Of a stretch of DNA of 64,000 nt, positions 2,448-43,797 are shown in pieces. The first letter of the stretch is position 1, and every line of letters begins with the position of its first letter. Under the pieces are notes generated by a model. That model did no database searches and was not told where the DNA came from. It saw only the letters and a program-made list of their open reading frames with translations. This DNA comes from Escherichia phage RB3, in sequence record KM606994. One strand, written 5' to 3'. A program made the position numbers and the translations under genes.

Positions 2448-4264
2448 TACTGGCTCATCCATTCTTTACGAAGGTCAGCATTATCTCCCATGAGCATTTC
2501 AAAAAGCTCTTTCCAGTTCTCAGGAAGTTTAACAACATCATATACTGGATTTTGAATCATCTCACGATATTCAGATTTTTCCAAAGAGCCAAGTCCCTTA
2601 ATATAACGGATACTATGTTTAGGTAGAGCATCTTTAGCACTCTCATATTCAGCGACTGTATAAAACCATTCTTGTTTTTTACCGACCTGAGCGATGATTA
2701 CAGGAGTTTTGACAAAGCGAATTCGTCCTTGCTCAAACAATTCTGGCCAATTACTAAAAAATCCGAGCAGAGAAGGATAAATGCTTCCTAAACCATCATG
2801 GTCAGCATCAGTCATAATAGCAATATTATGATAATTCAAGTTTTCAGCTTTTTCACCTAGAACTAAACCCGTGATTGCGCAAATATCAAACAGTTCTTTG
2901 TTTTTAAGCATATCAGCATATGACATACCCCAACTGTTGAGAACTTTACCACGCAATGGATAACCACCATGAAGTTCTTTATCACGAACATCAATAAGAT
3001 ATCCGATAGCAGAATCACCCTCAGTCAAGAAAAGAGTAGTGTCAGCATCTTTACCACAAAGATTCGCTTTAATATGTTTATGAACCTTAGCTTTAGAAGC
3101 CTTTTTAGCTGCTTTAGTTTCTGCTGCTTTTTCTGCTGCCAATTTACGAGCTAATGCTGCTTCAATAATTGGCATCAAAATTGCTTCATTATTTAGAATA
3201 GCGCGTGAAATCTTTTTAGCATCAAGTTGAATATGACTACGGATTTCACCAAATGGAGAAGTCAAACGCTCTTTAGTTTGAGAATCAAATCGCATGTTTT
3301 TCATATCACGAACAAACATAACGATAGTCAAACATTCTTTGACACGTGCTTTAGTTACATCAATTTTGAACTTACGTTTGATTTGTGGAATAAGGTCTTC
3401 ACAAATATCATCCATAACACAGTCAATGTGATGGCCACCATTCTTAGTGTGAATGTTATTCACATAAGTTAATTGACGAAATCCATCCGGTGAACGACCA
3501 ACCGCAATAGAACAATTTTCTTGTTCTTGAACAATAGCATGTTCATCATACTGTCGTGCATATTTCTTAAAATTGCCCTGAACCTTTTTACCATTAAAGG
3601 TAAATTGAATATCAGGATAAACAACAGCAAGTGTCTGGAGACGATCCAGTGTAATGTCAAGATAAACTTGGGACAGCTCATTAGTTTCAAATGACATAAA
3701 ATCAGGAATGAAAGTAACACGAGTTCCTTTCCATTTTCCAGGAATATCTTCCCATGATTTATTTTCCATGCCATTTGAACAACGAACTACAATATTATTT
3801 TGACCATCACCAGTTTCACCGACAAACATCACAGAAAAAATGTTTGTCAAACTAGAACCAACACCATTCATACCACCGGTGACGCGTTCTTTATCATCAC
3901 CGAAGTTACCACCTGCTTTTGGAATAGTCCACGCAGCAACAGGACCAGGAATTTCTTCACCTGTAGGTGTTTTAACCATCGCCTGTGGAATACCGCGACC
4001 GTTATCTTCAACTGTTACCTGATTATTTTTAATAGTAACATTAATTTTATTTGCGAATTTAAACTTAGTACGAATACCTTCATCTACTGAGTTATCAATA
4101 ATTTCATCAATAAGCTTAACAAGACCAGGTACATACTGAACACTTTCCCATTTACCAAACAGAAAGCGCTCATGCATTTCATTAGCAGAAGAGCCAATAT
4201 ACATGCCGCTACGCTTTTTGATATGTTCAATATCGCTCAGAATTTTAATTTCATTCTTAATCAT
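2447..4264 (-). CDS. 39: DNA topoisomerase II large subunit, uninterrupted (gene 39 fused with the gene 60 part), 605 aa from first ATG
   Basis: GyrB-like ATPase and TOPRIM motifs (EDNGRGIP, GGMNGVG); ORF-track start is GTG, ATG is codon 2; no interruption, no inserted endonuclease gene. Confidence 0.9.
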   Translation of the reverse strand: MIKNEIKILSDIEHIKKRSGMYIGSSANEMHERFLFGKWESVQYVPGLVKLIDEIIDNSVDEGIRTKFKFANKINVTIKNNQVTVEDNGRGIPQAMVKTPTGEEIPGPVAAWTIPKAGGNFGDDKERVTGGMNGVGSSLTNIFSVMFVGETGDGQNNIVVRCSNGMENKSWEDIPGKWKGTRVTFIPDFMSFETNELSQVYLDITLDRLQTLAVVYPDIQFTFNGKKVQGNFKKYARQYDEHAIVQEQENCSIAVGRSPDGFRQLTYVNNIHTKNGGHHIDCVMDDICEDLIPQIKRKFKIDVTKARVKECLTIVMFVRDMKNMRFDSQTKERLTSPFGEIRSHIQLDAKKISRAILNNEAILMPIIEAALARKLAAEKAAETKAAKKASKAKVHKHIKANLCGKDADTTLFLTEGDSAIGYLIDVRDKELHGGYPLRGKVLNSWGMSYADMLKNKELFDICAITGLVLGEKAENLNYHNIAIMTDADHDGLGSIYPSLLGFFSNWPELFEQGRIRFVKTPVIIAQVGKKQEWFYTVAEYESAKDALPKHSIRYIKGLGSLEKSEYREMIQNPVYDVVKLPENWKELFEMLMGDNADLRKEWMSQ

Positions 4265-4316
4265 CACTTATCCTCGTTTGGTTTCGGGAATATTATACTC
4301 CGGTAATCATAAAGCT

Positions 4317-4334
4317 AAAGGCCCGAAGGCCTTT
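4317..4334 (-). terminator. GC-rich hairpin (GGCC-UUCG-GGCC on minus transcript), possible terminator or RNA stability element
   Basis: Inverted repeat aaaggcc cgaa ggccttt between lipoprotein ORF and gene 39. Confidence 0.4.
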
Positions 4335-4594
4335 TATTTAAAACGAATAGTTGAATCCTTAAAGAACAGCCCAGAACATACTGTTCCTTCTACTTTCTGC
4401 CCGGTAGGTCCAATAGCACGAAATCCAGTATGCTGGAAATCATTTTCAGAGCAACCGAACCAATTATATCCAGTGATTTCAATATTAGTAAAACCACTTG
4501 AAGACAAAACTTTGGTTGCATTATCAGCATCAGTACATCCTACTAAAGACACTACTAATACTAATGCTGCGATAGAACGATTAATATATTTCAT
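4334..4594 (-). CDS. putative lipoprotein (signal peptide plus lipobox LVGC)
   Basis: ORF-track 115-aa ORF trimmed to internal Met MKYINRSIAALVLVVSLVGC. Confidence 0.45.
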   Translation of the reverse strand: MKYINRSIAALVLVVSLVGCTDADNATKVLSSSGFTNIEITGYNWFGCSENDFQHTGFRAIGPTGQKVEGTVCSGLFFKDSTIRFK

Positions 4595-38481: not shown

Positions 38482-38511
38482 ATAATACCACGGTTTGAAC
38501 TTGTTGTAAAC
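38482..38511 (-). promoter_or_regulatory. early promoter (GTTTAC, 18 nt, TATTAT)
   Basis: Plus strand ataata-N18-gtaaac followed by an A/T-rich tract. Confidence 0.5.
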
Positions 38512-38592
38512 AACTTTGTGAAAAATATTTTAGGGAATGATAAGAAAGGAACGATAGCTTAGAATGGTAATATACAGAATGTGAGAAAGAAA

Positions 38593-38605
38593 GGCCCAGA
38601 GGGCC
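38593..38605 (-). terminator. intrinsic terminator downstream of nrdH
   Basis: ggccc-aga-gggcc followed by a T-rich run on the minus transcript. Confidence 0.5.
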
Positions 38606-38609
38606 CGTC

Positions 38610-38918
38610 TTAGTCTTCTATGATATCTCTATCATATCCAAGTGAAATGAGAGTTTCTTTGAAGTGTTTAATGTTCTTTTGTCTAGAATCATTAATGAAA
38701 ATGACTGGATAACGAATGTTAAGAGATGTGAATCCAGCGCGTTTAGCAAGAGATACAATCAGTGGACGATCATACTCAATCTTACCATTATTTGTAAGAA
38801 CTTTATAGAAAGTAAAAGGAGCATTGAGCTCCTTTAGAAGTTTTGTAACTGATTGACATCCAGGACAACGACCTACTTCATCTGGAATTCCATAGACTTC
38901 AATCTTATTTTGTTTCAC
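38610..38918 (-). CDS. nrdH: glutaredoxin-like protein NrdH (102 aa)
   Basis: CPGC redox motif; thioredoxin-fold size; adjacent to nrdG. Confidence 0.75.
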   Translation of the reverse strand: MKQNKIEVYGIPDEVGRCPGCQSVTKLLKELNAPFTFYKVLTNNGKIEYDRPLIVSLAKRAGFTSLNIRYPVIFINDSRQKNIKHFKETLISLGYDRDIIED

Positions 38919-38920
38919 AA

Positions 38921-39133
38921 CTATTCCTTACTAAGAGCAGCATTCAGCTTGTTAGTAATTTTATCCAAACGTTCATTGAACTCGCTAGAAGATAGTCCTT
39001 TTTCTGGAGAAATCAAACTAATCACGAAAAATATAGCAATAAAAGGAATAAGGAAAATAGCTCCAACTGCCATAAACAAAAAGAATGTTACAGTTGTAAG
39101 AAAATCAGCTAAACCTTTACGAAATTTATACAT
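38921..39133 (-). CDS. small membrane protein (70 aa)
   Basis: ORF track; two hydrophobic segments. Confidence 0.45.
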   Translation of the reverse strand: MYKFRKGLADFLTTVTFFLFMAVGAIFLIPFIAIFFVISLISPEKGLSSSEFNERLDKITNKLNAALSKE

Positions 39134-39248
39134 ATTTTACCCTTAATTAATTAACCAAGCATTTATAAGCACTAAACTATATTGGGAATAAAATTCTGGA
39201 CCAAAATGAAAAATCATATCATTTATAGTATCCATAATGTAATTCAAT

Positions 39249-39719
39249 TTAATCATGTTTCCACACCCCATCGGTATTTGACCAAAGTCGCTGATTATCT
39301 GATCCTCGCCACAGCTTTTTAGTCGGAAGATTTTTCTCATACTTCCCATCAATAATAACATCAACATATTTAAGCATTTCTAGTTGTTTAATATCTTCAA
39401 ACTTATATCCTGTCCACAACCAAATGCTTTTATTGGGATAAAGATTTTTTACTGTTTGAACAATGCAATGAATAACATCTCGATTGTCAGGATAGAGAGG
39501 GTCTCCTCCGGTTATAGTCAATCCTTCTATATAATCATTATTCAAACATTCAATTAATTGTTCTAGTGTTTCACCAGTGAATGGAATACCATTTCTAGCA
39601 TTCCATGTTGATTTATTATAACACCCTTCGCATTTATGCAAACAACCTGTAACGAAAAGAACGACCCTGCATCCAGGGCCATTCACGAAGCAGCACGGGT
39701 ATATTCTGTCATAATTCAT
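39249..39719 (-). CDS. nrdG: anaerobic ribonucleotide reductase activase NrdG (radical SAM, 156 aa from first ATG)
   Basis: CxxxCxxC cluster (CLHKCEGC); track start is TTG, first ATG gives the T4 NrdG length. Confidence 0.85.
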   Translation of the reverse strand: MNYDRIYPCCFVNGPGCRVVLFVTGCLHKCEGCYNKSTWNARNGIPFTGETLEQLIECLNNDYIEGLTITGGDPLYPDNRDVIHCIVQTVKNLYPNKSIWLWTGYKFEDIKQLEMLKYVDVIIDGKYEKNLPTKKLWRGSDNQRLWSNTDGVWKHD

Positions 39720-40546
39720 AATAATATCCAATTTTTCCAAGCTTCATCAGTAGAATTACAGCGTTTTAGTATAAGATGTCTAGAAACTTTTATGGCATTT
39801 GAGCACTTTTTAATTGAATCATATTTAATACCGTCAACTGAAACGGTTTTGCTAGTTGGAGAAATTTTTCCATACATTGGATTTTTTGAACCAACTTGAA
39901 GTCCTTTTAAAGCTTTTGAAAGCTTTTGTCTAGATTCCAATGACATGGGAGAATTCTTTTTACCTTCAATAATTCGCTTGCGATGAAGTTCGCGTTCTTC
40001 TTCACTCAAAGAATTGTAATATTTTTTAACACCGTTTGATATAGATAATTTATCTTTCTCAGACCGCTCTCCAGCTAATTTACTTCTAACATCTTTTCGC
40101 TTCATAGCTATGCTTACGGCTTTATTTAAATTTGCTTGATGCTCTGGCGTACGTTTATATTTCTTTAAAGCACGTGAAATAGCTATTTTAGTTTCTTCTG
40201 TTCTCTTTTTACCTTTATTTGCTAAACTATTTTTGCGGCGATGTTCAAGTGTCTGTTCATAGGCAGTTCCACCTTTTCCACCAGGTTTAATATTATATGT
40301 ATTTTCTTTTAGACAATACTCTTCGGTTACGAGTTCAGCTTCTTTATCATACATTTGTTTTTCATTATCAAAAACATGTAAAATTTCTTTATTAAAATTT
40401 TTTCTACCATATTTTAATAAAGCGGCACGAATCAATGTTCCTGACCCCATATAACCGTCATTTATGTTATCGGTGCTATGCGCACCGATATATTCCTTTG
40501 AATTAATTATATTTGTTATTTTATAAATTATATAATACCTATGCAT
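39716..40546 (-). CDS. free-standing GIY-YIG homing endonuclease (276 aa)
   Basis: N-terminal GIY-YIG motif (YYIIYKITN...EYIGAHST), basic DNA-binding C-terminal region; lies between nrdG and nrdD. Confidence 0.8.
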   Translation of the reverse strand: MHRYYIIYKITNIINSKEYIGAHSTDNINDGYMGSGTLIRAALLKYGRKNFNKEILHVFDNEKQMYDKEAELVTEEYCLKENTYNIKPGGKGGTAYEQTLEHRRKNSLANKGKKRTEETKIAISRALKKYKRTPEHQANLNKAVSIAMKRKDVRSKLAGERSEKDKLSISNGVKKYYNSLSEEERELHRKRIIEGKKNSPMSLESRQKLSKALKGLQVGSKNPMYGKISPTSKTVSVDGIKYDSIKKCSNAIKVSRHLILKRCNSTDEAWKNWILL

Positions 40547-42356
40547 GTTTTACTCGTTTTACCATTTCTTTCATTTTACCTAAATTCCATGGGACAACGC
40601 TAGGAGTTCCAAGATATCCGCATGTTCTTCTTATTGTGTTCATCTTTTTGGGATCAGTTTCTCCACAAATAGAACAAACAAATCCGTTTTCAGTAGGAGT
40701 CATTTCATGGGTACTTCCGCATGTAAAACATTTATCTACTGGCATATTAACACCAAAATAATCTAAATGTTGTGCAGCATAATCCCATACGGCCTCAAGA
40801 CCCTTTAAGTTATTTTTCATATCAGGAAGTTCAACATAAGAAATGTGACCACCTGTCGCAATGAAATGATATGGCGCTTCACGAGAAATCTTTTCAAACG
40901 GAGTAATATTTTCTTCTACTGAAACATGGAAACTGTTAGTGTACCAACCTTTATCGGTAACATCTTTTACGCTTCCATATTTTTCTGTATCGAGTTTACA
41001 GAAGCGATAACAAAGGTTTTCAGCAGGAGTCGAATATAAACTAAAAGCAAATCCAGTTCTTTCAGTCCACTGTTTAAGATGAGCATTCATTTTAGTTAAA
41101 ATTTCCTGTCCAATATCACGACCGACAAGAATATTCAATTCATGAATACCAATGTATCCTAGGGACACTGAACTTCTACCGTTTTTAAATAACTCAATTA
41201 TGTCGTCATCAGGTTTAAGACGAACCCCGAATGCACCTTCTTGGTAAAGAATAGGAGCAACAGTAGCTTTAACTCCTTTTAAGGAACTAATTCTACACAT
41301 CAAGGCTTCAAAACACAGGTCCATTCGCTCATCAAACAATTCAGTAAATTTCTGTTCATTGAACTGTGTTCCAATATAAGAATCTAACGCGATGCGAGGA
41401 AGATTCAGTGTTACAACACCAAGATTATTACGTCCATCAAGAATTTCATTACCAGTCGAATCTTTCCATACGCTCAAGAAACTACGGCAACCCATTGGAG
41501 AAACAGGAACAGATGAACCAGTGATAGCTTTATTGTTCTTAGCTGAAATAATATCAGGATACATCCTTTTGCTTGCACACTCTAGAGCAAGCTGCTTAAT
41601 ATCATAGTTCGGATCGTCTTTGTAAAGATTAACGCCTTCTTCGACGAACATAACAAGCTTAGGAAAAATAGGAGTTATCCCATCACGACCGAGACCTTTA
41701 ATACGATTTTTCAGAATTGCTTTCTGAATCATTCGTTCAGTCCAGTCAGTTCCCGTACCAAATGTAATTGTTACAAAAGGAGTTTGTCCGTTTGAACTAA
41801 AGAGAGTATTTACTTCATATTCATAAGCTTGGAATGCATCGTATACGTCTTTTTCTGTTTTAGATTGAGCATAATTCAACGCATCGGCGATTTGCCATTT
41901 TTCTGCATCCTCAATATGTTTTGCATAGGTGCGTTTAACATAAGGAGAAAGTACTTTATCTACATTAGCAAAAGTCGTTCCGCCATATTGGTGAGAAGCA
42001 ACCTGTGCAGTAATTTGTGCCATAATTGCAGTAGCAACACCGATTGATTTAGGAGTTTCAATCTGCGCATTACCAAGCTTAAATCCGTTCTCAAGCATTC
42101 CTTTTAAATCTACTAAACAGCAATTAGTAAATGGAAGAGCAGGGGAATAATCAATATCATGGAAATGGATAATTCCGCTTTCATGCGCTTTCATAATAAA
42201 AGACGGGACCATATTTTTGGCAATGTGTTTAGACACAATACCAGCCATAAGGTCCCGTTGAGTTGGAAAAACACGAGAATCTTTATTAGCATTCTCGTTT
42301 AAAAGGTCTTTATTAGTTTTATGAATCAATCCTTCAATTTCTTTTTCAATTGTCAT
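40539..42356 (-). CDS. nrdD: anaerobic ribonucleoside-triphosphate reductase NrdD (605 aa), uninterrupted
   Basis: C-terminal glycyl radical motif RRTCGYLG and Cys zinc site; single ORF, no intron. Confidence 0.92.
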   Translation of the reverse strand: MTIEKEIEGLIHKTNKDLLNENANKDSRVFPTQRDLMAGIVSKHIAKNMVPSFIMKAHESGIIHFHDIDYSPALPFTNCCLVDLKGMLENGFKLGNAQIETPKSIGVATAIMAQITAQVASHQYGGTTFANVDKVLSPYVKRTYAKHIEDAEKWQIADALNYAQSKTEKDVYDAFQAYEYEVNTLFSSNGQTPFVTITFGTGTDWTERMIQKAILKNRIKGLGRDGITPIFPKLVMFVEEGVNLYKDDPNYDIKQLALECASKRMYPDIISAKNNKAITGSSVPVSPMGCRSFLSVWKDSTGNEILDGRNNLGVVTLNLPRIALDSYIGTQFNEQKFTELFDERMDLCFEALMCRISSLKGVKATVAPILYQEGAFGVRLKPDDDIIELFKNGRSSVSLGYIGIHELNILVGRDIGQEILTKMNAHLKQWTERTGFAFSLYSTPAENLCYRFCKLDTEKYGSVKDVTDKGWYTNSFHVSVEENITPFEKISREAPYHFIATGGHISYVELPDMKNNLKGLEAVWDYAAQHLDYFGVNMPVDKCFTCGSTHEMTPTENGFVCSICGETDPKKMNTIRRTCGYLGTPSVVPWNLGKMKEMVKRVKHA

Positions 42357-42826
42357 TTTAAACTCTTTCTAAGCTGCTTCTTAAATGAAGCTATTAACTG
42401 TGTTTTGGTGTCAGATTCATTATATTCAAATCCTCTTTGAAGCATCTCGGCCATCATTTCCTCTTTTCCTAAACGAGAAAATTCCTTTGATTTATCTCCA
42501 ACAAAGTTAGGGTGAATATTATTTTGGGTGTAATCGGATTTTAAATAAGTAAGTAAATTTTCTAACCATTCAAGATAATCAACACCTTGTCCCTTTAAGC
42601 CAGAACGATTAAATTTATGCTTCATTTGACCTTCTGCGGCATTGCAGAGATTACAAAGCAATCCACGCACCTTTCCTGCTTTTGGTCCATTTAATTCATG
42701 GTCATGGTCGAGGTGATTAGCTTGAACATCAGGATTTAGTTCTCGTTGGCAAATTAAGCATTTACCGTTTTGTGCATTATAAAATTTTTGTTTTTCTTCT
42801 TTGTATAATTTGCCAGTCAATAACAT
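42353..42826 (-). CDS. 49: endonuclease VII (Holliday junction resolvase, 157 aa)
   Basis: Zn-binding CLICQ...CNLCN and HDH motifs; length as T4 gp49. Confidence 0.88.
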   Translation of the reverse strand: MLLTGKLYKEEKQKFYNAQNGKCLICQRELNPDVQANHLDHDHELNGPKAGKVRGLLCNLCNAAEGQMKHKFNRSGLKGQGVDYLEWLENLLTYLKSDYTQNNIHPNFVGDKSKEFSRLGKEEMMAEMLQRGFEYNESDTKTQLIASFKKQLRKSLK

Positions 42827-42867
42827 AATAAACCCTTACCTTAAATAGATAAGGGTATTTATTATTT

Positions 42868-43371
42868 TCAAGTATTGTAAAACATTTGATTCAATCGCTT
42901 ATATTGCCGAATCTTTTGGTCAGAAAAAGAAATTTGGGTTTCAAGCCATTCAATATATTCTGCCGCAGCTTGCATCAAATTTCCTTCATAGCCATCGTTA
43001 TTTTCTTGTGCAGCTAATTTAGCTAATGCGTATGAAATACGTTCACCTTGAAAATCAGCTTTAGGCTTCTGAACAACTTGATTAGTTCTCTCTACAACTT
43101 CTTCAATTTCGCCATTTTCTACTGATTCAGTATTCCACAAGCACCAATACGTAATTGGCTTATCGTAGATGTTAATAATCTTTCCATCAGAAAGTTCAAT
43201 TTCAATAATTCCAGTGTCAGGCTCTATATCATCTTCACATTCTTTTGCGAGTTCACGAACTTTAAAGACAGTACCTGCACTAAGTTCCGGCCAGTAATTA
43301 CACAGCCCTGTATCAGCACGATTAATTCTAAACCACTTATCTACTGTAATCATGTCCCATCTCCATATCAA
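42868..43371 (-). CDS. hypothetical protein (167 aa; 161 aa from second Met)
   Basis: ORF track; size and position compatible with T4 pin region, sequence not recognised. Confidence 0.4.
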   Translation of the reverse strand: MIWRWDMITVDKWFRINRADTGLCNYWPELSAGTVFKVRELAKECEDDIEPDTGIIEIELSDGKIINIYDKPITYWCLWNTESVENGEIEEVVERTNQVVQKPKADFQGERISYALAKLAAQENNDGYEGNLMQAAAEYIEWLETQISFSDQKIRQYKRLNQMFYNT

Positions 43372-43476
43372 TTAAGTCATTTATCGTTGGTTCATTATAT
43401 ACTGTTTCTTCATCAGTGTAAACCGGTTCTTCCGGCTCTGGCTCTACAGTTTCCCATCTAGCCGCCCACCAAGGTT

Positions 43477-43797
43477 TTATAGCGTAATCCATTCTCGTAC
43501 TGTCTGAGTTACTACACGTTCATGGGGCTCGACTAGTTCAACAGTCGGAACTGCATAATACCAGTCAGAATGATAAGAACCTGACCGAGATTCATTTACA
43601 GCCACATGTACATTATGTTTTGGACTAAAGTAAACACACTGACGATATTGACATTTACCATCTTGCACCCAGTCTTCTATTTCGACAGGTTTAAGATAAT
43701 CGGAAAAATCGAAATCATAGTTTTCCGAAAATGCATCATGGTCTTCAATGATTTCGCTCAGAACTGCATCAACATCTAATTTATTTTCAATAGTCAT
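43477..43797 (-). CDS. hypothetical protein (106 aa)
   Basis: ORF track. Confidence 0.4.
   Translation of the reverse strand: MTIENKLDVDAVLSEIIEDHDAFSENYDFDFSDYLKPVEIEDWVQDGKCQYRQCVYFSPKHNVHVAVNESRSGSYHSDWYYAVPTVELVEPHERVVTQTVREWITL

Follow-up and report, generated by a model that had tools for sequence, protein, structure and literature searches.

In phage T4 the nrdD gene, which encodes the large subunit of the anaerobic ribonucleotide reductase, is split by a 1033-nt group I intron encoding the endonuclease I-TevII; the initial annotation of the present locus had noted an endonuclease-encoding group I intron there. In Escherichia phage RB3, by comparison, nrdD is continuous, and a separate reading frame of endonuclease type lies between it and nrdG. 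The arrangement had been described as what an intron-less homing-endonuclease target locus is expected to look like, and it raises the question of whether the free-standing gene has anything to do with the missing intron or is an element in its own right. The locus was analysed within a window of 64,000 nucleotides of RB3 sequence (record KM606994), and all coordinates below are positions in that window.

Layout and predicted expression of the nrdD-nrdG region

The ORF list contains four minus-strand ORFs in the region:

42353..42826, minus strand: gene 49 (endonuclease VII), the upstream neighbour (ORF list; Pfam Endonuclease_7)
40539..42356, minus strand: nrdD, anaerobic ribonucleotide reductase large subunit, uninterrupted, 605 aa (Pfam, colinearity with T4, Rfam)
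39716..40546, minus strand: segH, free-standing GIY-YIG homing endonuclease gene, 276 aa, stop codon included
39249..39719, minus strand: nrdG activase, 156 aa from the ATG at 39719

Pfam matches support both reductase genes, with NRDD (E = 7e-172) and Gly_radical found in nrdD and Fer4_12 (E = 3e-48) in nrdG. As had been noticed at the outset, segH overlaps each neighbour by a few nucleotides. The overlap with nrdD is 8 nt, the segH ATG lying within ...AAA CAT GCA TAG as read from the sequence, while that with nrdG is 4 nt and takes the form ATGA, the segH TGA sharing bases with the nrdG ATG. The same 4-nt overlap is annotated in T6 and in the original RB3 and T6 GenBank entries, and the nrdG ATG at 39719 matches the start annotated in T6, RB3 and UTI-E4. 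A 25-nt segH/nrdG overlap taken from the ORF list was rejected as an artefact, because nrdG had there been called from an upstream TTG. The initial annotation placed the endonuclease gene in front of nrdD; by direction of transcription, segH comes after it.

The T4 late-promoter sequence TATAAATA was not found anywhere near segH, and sigma-70-like promoter matches near the gene were fewer than in shuffled sequence. No unusual RNA structure masking the segH ribosome-binding site was detected (z = -1.2), the AUG region being mostly open. SegH would be translated from a polycistronic nrdD-segH-nrdG mRNA, on which the stop codon of nrdD and the segH AUG share sequence.

Identification of the junction ORF as segH

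The ORF at 39716-40546 was compared with the RB3 entry AY262138.2 ('SegH, homing endonuclease') and found to match at 831 of 831 nucleotides; the length (831 nt) and the 8-nt and 4-nt overlaps are equal, and no difference was seen. That record is credited to Sandegren, Nord and Sjöberg (NAR 2005), the source of the name SegH. The same gene is annotated as segH in T6 (AY262137.2) and LZ2 (AY262139.2), and phages RB5, RB6, RB7, RB9 and RB10 are 100% identical to the window in this region, the sequence being that of a Tequatrovirus of the RB3/RB5 type. The T6 gene is slightly diverged: the window SegH differs by 5 amino acids from the copy in the T6 genome (MH550421), and by 10 nucleotides and 6 amino acids from AY262137.2. 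At codon level, 6 non-synonymous and 4 synonymous changes separate the segH of the window from that of T6, which fits the weak purifying selection expected of a selfish gene.

Nothing speaks against the identification as segH. Gene identity, position, domain layout and patchy distribution (see below) are established in this analysis, and we hold with high confidence that the ORF is the selfish T-even phage gene segH, which encodes a free-standing GIY-YIG homing endonuclease and would spread by the homing mechanism proposed below. Such weaknesses as there are lie with the mechanism. The finding is real but ordinary: the gene has been known since 2005, because the ORF is identical to the deposited RB3 segH of Sandegren et al. 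2005.

In the public RB5-RB10 genomes segH is labelled 'segD' and started at an internal ATG (244 aa), and nrdG is truncated. The present analysis thus corrects the name, the shortened segH start and the truncated nrdG of those annotations.

Domain organisation of SegH

SegH matches phrog_314 ('homing endonuclease') with E = 2.4e-60 and TIGR01453 ('group I intron endonuclease') with E = 3.3e-13, the latter at 50.2 bits and hence below its trusted cut-off of 56.05. NUMOD3 is matched at 33.8 bits (E = 3.1e-8, cut-off 20.4) in three stretches, the best covering residues 200-228. Two further Pfam matches remain under threshold, namely GIY-YIG PF01541 (8.7 bits, E = 2.9; cut-off 22.6) and PF19835 (18.6 bits; cut-off 25). 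Given the phrog_314, TIGR01453 and NUMOD3 matches together with the visible IIY and YIG motifs, a chance origin of the reading frame is rejected, and the original description of a 276-aa free-standing GIY-YIG gene between nrdG and nrdD proves accurate. The protein was divided as follows:

40262..40546, minus strand: N-terminal GIY-YIG catalytic domain, approximately aa 1-95 (motifs, BLASTP, MAFFT)
39863..40255, minus strand: central linker with NUMOD3-type repeats, approximately aa 98-228 (Pfam NUMOD3)
39728..39871, minus strand: predicted C-terminal I-TevI-like DNA-binding domain, aa 226-273 (PF20987, BLASTP)

The motifs read from the sequence are IIY at residues 6-8, YIG at 19-21, E69/E71 and N85. 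SegH was aligned with I-TevI, I-TevII and SegG using MAFFT. I6-I7-Y8 and Y19-I20-G21 align to the GIY and YVG of I-TevI, with the expected spacing of 10-11 residues, and E69/E71 and N85 (in TYNI) align with the ERENFW and GYNI segments that contain I-TevI E75 and N90. E69 and N85 are invariant in SegH, I-TevII and the F2 homologue. BLASTP against T4 I-TevI pairs SegH residues 7-101 with 5-106 (E = 0.002). A counterpart of I-TevI Arg27 is not evident in the alignments, where the R27 segment falls opposite a gap and the Arg27-bearing helix of I-TevI is absent from SegH. SegH R40 is a candidate for the catalytic Arg.

At the C-terminus, PF20987 is matched with E = 3e-4, under its cut-off, and BLASTP aligns SegH 224-276 with I-TevI 194-243 (E = 3e-4). 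PDB sequence searches with SegH alone or with a four-sequence profile did not reach I-TevI, and a single-sequence AlphaFold model (pLDDT 43, pTM 0.19) was too poor to use. In I-TevI and T4 SegA-SegG the parts follow the same order as in SegH, with GIY-YIG at the N-terminus, then a NUMOD3-type linker, and a DNA-binding domain of helix-turn-helix type at the C-terminus, but the target locus is different.

Occupants of the nrdD-nrdG junction and their flanks

Approximately 67-69 of roughly 680 close relatives carry segH, a patchy presence as expected of a mobile element, and the nrdD-nrdG gap is empty in about 90%. Intact segH is kept at 95% identity or more in some 68 records; in PD112 it is reduced to a remnant by an internal deletion of approximately 577 bp, with the tail retained. 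A different gene, mobC, is found in 32 records. This HNH gene holds in T4 the gap that segH occupies here, and shares with it both the slot and the polycistronic, promoter-less position. The MobC fold (HNH, PF01844) is however unrelated to SegH, with no sequence similarity between the two. Their surroundings also differ: mobC opens with a duplicated nrdG 5' end and is accompanied by a divergent nrdG allele, only about 81-83% identical to the nrdG of other Tequatroviruses, whereas segH is accompanied by an altered end of nrdD:

40539..40617, minus strand: recoded nrdD 3' tail, 24 codons after the glycyl-radical Gly580 (allele alignment)

When segH, empty-site and mobC alleles are aligned, this tail reads LGTPSVVPWNLGKMKEMVKRVKHA rather than LGNPNERGFNLGKNKEIMHRVKHQ. 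Every segH allele carries the recoded 24-codon tail, and the segH ribosome-binding region and start codon lie within it. The 70-nt tail was found in only 79 records, each at least 95.7% identical, and no donor was found among phage records beyond these 79 carriers; the nearest other protein match, in Klebsiella phages, is at 76%. On the nrdG side, a segH-linked patch at nt 12-30 (window 39690-39708) reads PCC, not PCD. Judging from the alleles compared, the flanks are co-inherited with segH.

Strict linkage between tail and segH was considered and rejected, as a few phages, those of the ELT1 type, have the recoded tail beside mobC. In these phages mobC lies between segH-type flanks, with the junction at a shared 10-nt CATGCATAGG. 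The combination suggests that one endonuclease gene replaced the other at the site. Both the recoded nrdD tail and the ELT1-type pairing of tail and mobC go beyond existing annotation.

Across the approximately 680 genomes, the locus displays the life cycle of such a gene: an empty site, invasion accompanied by co-conversion of the flanks, loss of an internal segment, and displacement by a rival endonuclease gene. One could go further and view the nrdD-nrdG junction as contested ground on which competing endonuclease cassettes displace one another, each dragging along a foreign piece of a reductase gene, a reading we regard as possible but rather doubtful. If true, the recoded tail would mark a SegH recognition or immunity region, and the hybrids would provide the first evidence for present or past mobility of MobC, an enzyme not known to be active. 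We do not claim the tail as proven SegH immunity: the 2005 abstract of Sandegren et al. reportedly has SegH cutting DNA both with and without segH.

Relation of segH to the nrdD intron

That nrdD forms one continuous frame of 605 aa in the window, as first described, was confirmed by the ORF list, by colinearity with spliced T4 nrdD (1818 nt) and by Rfam. No Rfam match to a group I intron was obtained between window positions 38500 and 43500, even at E<=1; the T4 locus, used as positive control, returned RF00028 at 105 bits. The position that the intron takes in T4 can be located:

41818..41819, minus strand: vacant site at which the group I intron sits in T4 nrdD (splice-junction fit against T4)

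The best fit puts the site after base 538 of the nrdD coding sequence, and the 35 nt on either side are identical to those of the intron-less phage UTI-E4. The window sequence at this point is a typical intron-less allele.

An endonuclease functionally tied to such an intact intron-less nrdD could be either an escaped I-TevII-like ORF or a cutter of the intron site (collaborative homing). Elsewhere, intron insertion sites are known to be cut by free-standing endonucleases, F-CphI being one and mobE, with I-TevIII, another. I-TevII is moreover, like SegH, a GIY-YIG enzyme associated with nrdD, and the two are weakly similar (30% identity over 128 aa, E = 7.5e-6). However, segH and the nrdD intron are found together in at least 21 of the approximately 69 segH-carrying records, with a T4-type intron in 4 (e.g. 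EC128) and a variant intron in at least 17 (e.g. F2), while most intron-less relatives lack an endonuclease gene at the nrdD-nrdG junction (e.g. UTI-E4). I-TevII is encoded in a self-splicing intron 1.27 kb upstream of segH and occurs independently of it. The flanks linked to segH are the 3' tail of nrdD and the head of nrdG rather than the surroundings of the intron site, and the slot is that of mobC in T4. Nor does the ORF itself have the features of an intron-encoded gene: it lacks an Rfam intron match, is intergenic and overlaps both neighbouring genes. We therefore consider a functional tie to the intron-less state highly improbable. segH is independent of the nrdD intron, not its alternative, and the proposed link between the free-standing gene and an intron-less target locus finds no support. 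As to whether relatives with the intron also carry the gene at this position, the outcome is divided: it is not present in all relatives, in keeping with the initial proposal, yet it does occur alongside the intron, which runs counter to it. Free-standing and intron-borne endonucleases at nrdD thus stand as independent elements.

Proposed homing of segH

A route of spread can be proposed if I-TevI and the T4 Seg enzymes are taken as the model. A long DNA site near segH would be bound by the NUMOD3 repeats together with the I-TevI-like domain at the C-terminus, and the N-terminal GIY-YIG domain would cut the double strand. In a mixed infection, recombination from a segH genome would then mend the broken segH-less one, a repair that would carry segH and its flanks (recoded nrdD tail and nrdG head) into the recipient. 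The outcome would be intronless homing, which may also be visible as marker exclusion. Reliance on the repair of double-strand breaks, with the flanks co-converted, would be common to SegH, I-TevI and the T4 Seg enzymes, SegF and SegG for example. The scattered distribution of segH among close relatives and the flanks inherited along with it lend indirect support to preferential inheritance in mixed infections. SegH was named by Sandegren, Nord and Sjöberg (2005), who reportedly tested it in T4-like phages, and the case for its cleavage and homing activity depends on that study.

It could be argued that segH is instead a decaying or domesticated remnant, no longer homing and kept for the nrdD stop codon and for translational coupling to nrdG. 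The nrdD stop codon does sit inside the segH cassette, and PD112 has already lost approximately 577 bp of the gene yet kept the tail; the 6 non-synonymous to 4 synonymous differences from T6 and the lack of an evident counterpart of Arg27 point in the same direction. Set against this, the window ORF has its full length and does not differ from the RB3 gene, which the authors who assayed SegH designated a homing endonuclease. We thus see very little chance that segH is such a remnant, and favour a homing endonuclease gene: the approximately 68 records with intact segH speak for its retention, and SegH itself keeps the GIY, YIG, Glu and Asn motif residues.

Gene order and identity of the ORF

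The ORF listing for the minus strand of the window contains four genes arranged head to tail, in the order 49, nrdD, a 276-aa ORF and nrdG:

42353-42826, minus strand: gene 49, endonuclease VII (ORF listing; Pfam Endonuclease_7)
40539-42356, minus strand: nrdD, a single uninterrupted 605-aa ORF (Pfam NRDD, E = 7e-172, and Gly_radical)
39716-40546, minus strand: segH, the 276-aa ORF (ORF listing, sequence)
39249-39719, minus strand: nrdG, with its ATG at 39719 (Pfam Fer4_12, E = 3e-48)

The placement of segH is polycistronic, with start and stop codons overlapping its neighbours. Its ATG sits within ...AAA CAT GCA TAG, giving an overlap of 8 nt with nrdD, while its TGA is fused with the nrdG ATG as ATGA, an overlap of 4 nt. 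The Pfam-confirmed neighbours, the ORF layout and these overlaps therefore show that the initial annotation, which placed a 276-aa ORF between nrdD and nrdG with overlaps of a few nucleotides, described the locus accurately. Its statement that the endonuclease gene precedes nrdD needs reversing, as in the direction of transcription the gene lies downstream of nrdD. The ORF listing also offers a longer nrdG beginning with a TTG at 39740, which is an artefact; the ATG is the annotated start in T6, RB3 and UTI-E4.

The segment 39200-42900 was found to be 100% identical to phages RB5, RB6, RB7, RB9 and RB10. Its identity to T6, PP01 and others is 96-98%, with the ORF annotated as segH in both T6 and PP01. 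GenBank entries titled 'NrdD, SegH, NrdG' are available for T6 (AY262137.2), RB3 (AY262138.2) and LZ2 (AY262139.2), and the RB3 segH and the window ORF agree at 831/831 nt. In T4, by contrast, the HNH gene mobC fills exactly the nrdD/nrdG gap that segH fills here. Given the complete match and this shared slot, the ORF can thus be identified from its sequence as segH, a gene already named and already assayed. The observation is confirmed and is itself of low interest. The identity of segH does amend the public annotation of RB5-RB10. These genome records (GenBank KM606995 for RB5; window 39249-40546) mislabel the gene as 'segD' and give it an internal ATG as its start codon (244 aa, ending at window 40450); they also shorten nrdG to 39249-39641, versus the nrdG start at 39719.

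No T4 late promoter was found near segH, and folding revealed no unusual RNA structure around its start. Within the coding region, a hairpin of 9 perfectly paired bp and a 5-nt loop (TATCGGTGC/GCACCGATA; window 40468-40490) spans the YIGAHSTD codons, 56-78 nt past the AUG, and leaves the ribosome-binding site uncovered.

Modular architecture of SegH

SegH matched phrog_314 'homing endonuclease' (E = 2.4e-60) and TIGR01453 'group I intron endonuclease' (E = 3.3e-13, slightly below the trusted cut-off), with NUMOD3 exceeding its cut-off in three stretches. Pfam also gave weaker matches, to the GIY-YIG domain of SegE and to the DNA-binding domain of I-TevI. Pairwise BLASTP against T4 I-TevI yielded two collinear matches, corresponding to the catalytic domain (SegH 7-101 with I-TevI 5-106, E = 0.002) and the C-terminal DNA-binding domain (SegH 224-276 with I-TevI 194-243, E = 3e-4). 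SegH IIY, YIG, E69/E71 and N85 align with GIY, YVG, E75 and N90 of I-TevI, whereas the I-TevI helix bearing Arg27 has no counterpart in SegH in these alignments. The generic Pfam GIY-YIG model fell short of significance on SegH, PDB sequence searches did not reach I-TevI, and a single-sequence structure model was too poor for use.

By analogy with I-TevI and the Seg enzymes, the C-terminal modules would bind DNA over a long site close to the nrdD/nrdG junction, and the GIY-YIG domain would make a double-strand break. Recombination-dependent repair from the segH genome would then copy the cassette into the broken genome. According to a 2005 study, SegH reportedly cuts close to its own locus, in segH-containing as well as segH-less DNA, and is said to home in mixed infections.

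segH and the nrdD intron

The T4 annotation gives nrdD as a join of two exons that flank I-TevII, and alignment with the window yields two blocks, separated in T4 by 1033 inserted nt that follow coding base 538 (between window 41819 and 41818). Spliced T4 nrdD is 1818 nt, the same as nrdD of the window. Rfam returned zero RNA family matches for window 38500-43500 even at E ≤ 1, and recovered the group I intron of the T4 locus at 105 bits. The window nrdD, a single 605-aa ORF colinear with the spliced T4 gene, is therefore intron-less, and T4 nrdD is split by an endonuclease-encoding intron, both as initially proposed.

We compared approximately 680 phage records containing this region at ≥90% identity. 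In most of these, nrdD abuts nrdG directly (ATGA overlap) and has no intron, as for example in UTI-E4; such records span ~2878 bp in a spread listing of the ~680 matches. Full-length segH is present in 67-69 records, mobC in 32 and the T4-type nrdD intron in 25-27. The comparison with T4, the RB phages, T6 and others thus finds segH in only part of the relatives, with mobC in its place in T4. The full-length gene is absent from all but those 67-69 records, yet it does occur in some that carry an intron: segH accompanies the T4-type intron in four records (EC128, RPN226 and two of fPS-2), and a variant intron, inserted where the T4 one is, in at least 17 records among the matches listed (for example F2, GRNsp7 and HY03).

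The arrangement had been taken as what an intron-less target locus should look like. Since segH coexists with nrdD introns, shares only ~30% identity with I-TevII over 128 residues and lies 1.27 kb from the intron insertion site, the locus therefore bears no such signature; most intron-less relatives, moreover, lack the gene in the junction. The initial interpretation is partly right, in that segH does encode a homing endonuclease of the GIY-YIG type, stands free of any intron and occupies a polymorphic site; its link to the missing intron is wrong. segH and the nrdD intron are two independent mobile elements sharing one operon by chance.

The variant intron (F2 3447-4457; ELT1, MZ892903, 4529-5540) occupies the T4 insertion site and encodes an I-TevII homologue with a protein identity of only 56%; it was not called by Rfam at the gathering threshold. 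Six synonymous changes, all in one 13-nt stretch of exon 2 (+8 to +20; window 41799-41811), set the alleles with the intron (T4, EC128) apart from those that lack it (window, UTI-E4). They lie just downstream of the insertion site, in the region where I-TevII cuts, and parallel the recoded nrdD tail beside segH. Another free-standing GIY-YIG ORF, resembling SegG (VVYKLSF...YYYIGSK) and carrying NUMOD3, lies between gene 49 and nrdD in Lutter (2625-3446), Pu-Krd-SF4 (2710-3447) and PD112 (2860-3681), which makes this gap a third place around nrdD where an endonuclease gene has inserted.

Recoded flanks of segH

Alignment of segH alleles (window, T6, EC128) with empty alleles (UTI-E4, Lutter) and T4 shows these to be near-identical as far as the codons of the glycyl-radical motif, RRTCG(580)Y. 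Beyond it, from codon 582 through the stop codon (window ~40613-40539), every segH allele differs at both nucleotide and protein level, with a recoded tail of LGTPSVVPWNLGKMKEMVKRVKHA versus LGNPNERGFNLGKNKEIMHRVKHQ otherwise. A smaller segH-linked patch occurs at nrdG nt 12-30 (PCC versus PCD). The 70-nt recoded tail, which includes the segH translation start region, was found in 79 records, with an identity of ≥95.7% in each, and in no other phage; at the protein level the closest match outside this set, from Klebsiella phages, reaches 76%. Such a pattern would arise if foreign sequence flanking the endonuclease gene was co-converted along with it, and the recoded tail may have a bearing on target recognition or immunity.

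PD112 (MH837626) retains the recoded tail next to a segH remnant (742-1052) with a ~577 bp internal deletion (window 40407-39831) and an overlap of ~12 nt at the joint; this remnant is a decaying copy of segH. The junction may be a site of turnover of endonuclease genes and recoded reductase flanks, a reading of only modest interest.

The 10-mer CATGCATAGG (window 40537-40546) spans the nrdD stop and segH start. The standard nrdD tail has this 10-mer as well, 16 nt farther upstream, and there it is translated as M-H-R, matching the first three residues of SegH. This may be microhomology that arose by chance or a relic of the original insertion.

mobC hybrids and the linked nrdG

ELT1 (locus 2480-3360), SHFML-11 and BCPEco_001 contain a T4-type mobC (99.3% identical) flanked on one side by a segH-type nrdD tail and on the other by an nrdG head that is partly of segH type. 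At the left junction these hybrids have the same 10-mer, common to both allele types, with 12 nt of the standard nrdD tail left behind as a remnant. The hybrid alleles suggest that one endonuclease gene replaced the other, whether mobC for segH or the reverse.

T4-type nrdG (T4 locus 2447-2917) shares only ~80-83% identity with its counterparts in the window and in other Tequatroviruses, versus 95-98% for nrdD. At full length and ≥98.8% identity it occurs in only ~30 records, the same set as the mobC carriers, and its nearest other relatives are in Klebsiella phages (88-89%). mobC thus seems to travel with its own nrdG. Both T4 mobC and the MobC-like HNH gene of Klebsiella phage Roth04 (2534-3370) begin with a duplicated NrdG N-terminus (MNYDRIY in T4 MobC, MNFDRIYPSDFVN in Roth04), and it appears that the nrdG start, together with its translation signals, became duplicated when mobC inserted.
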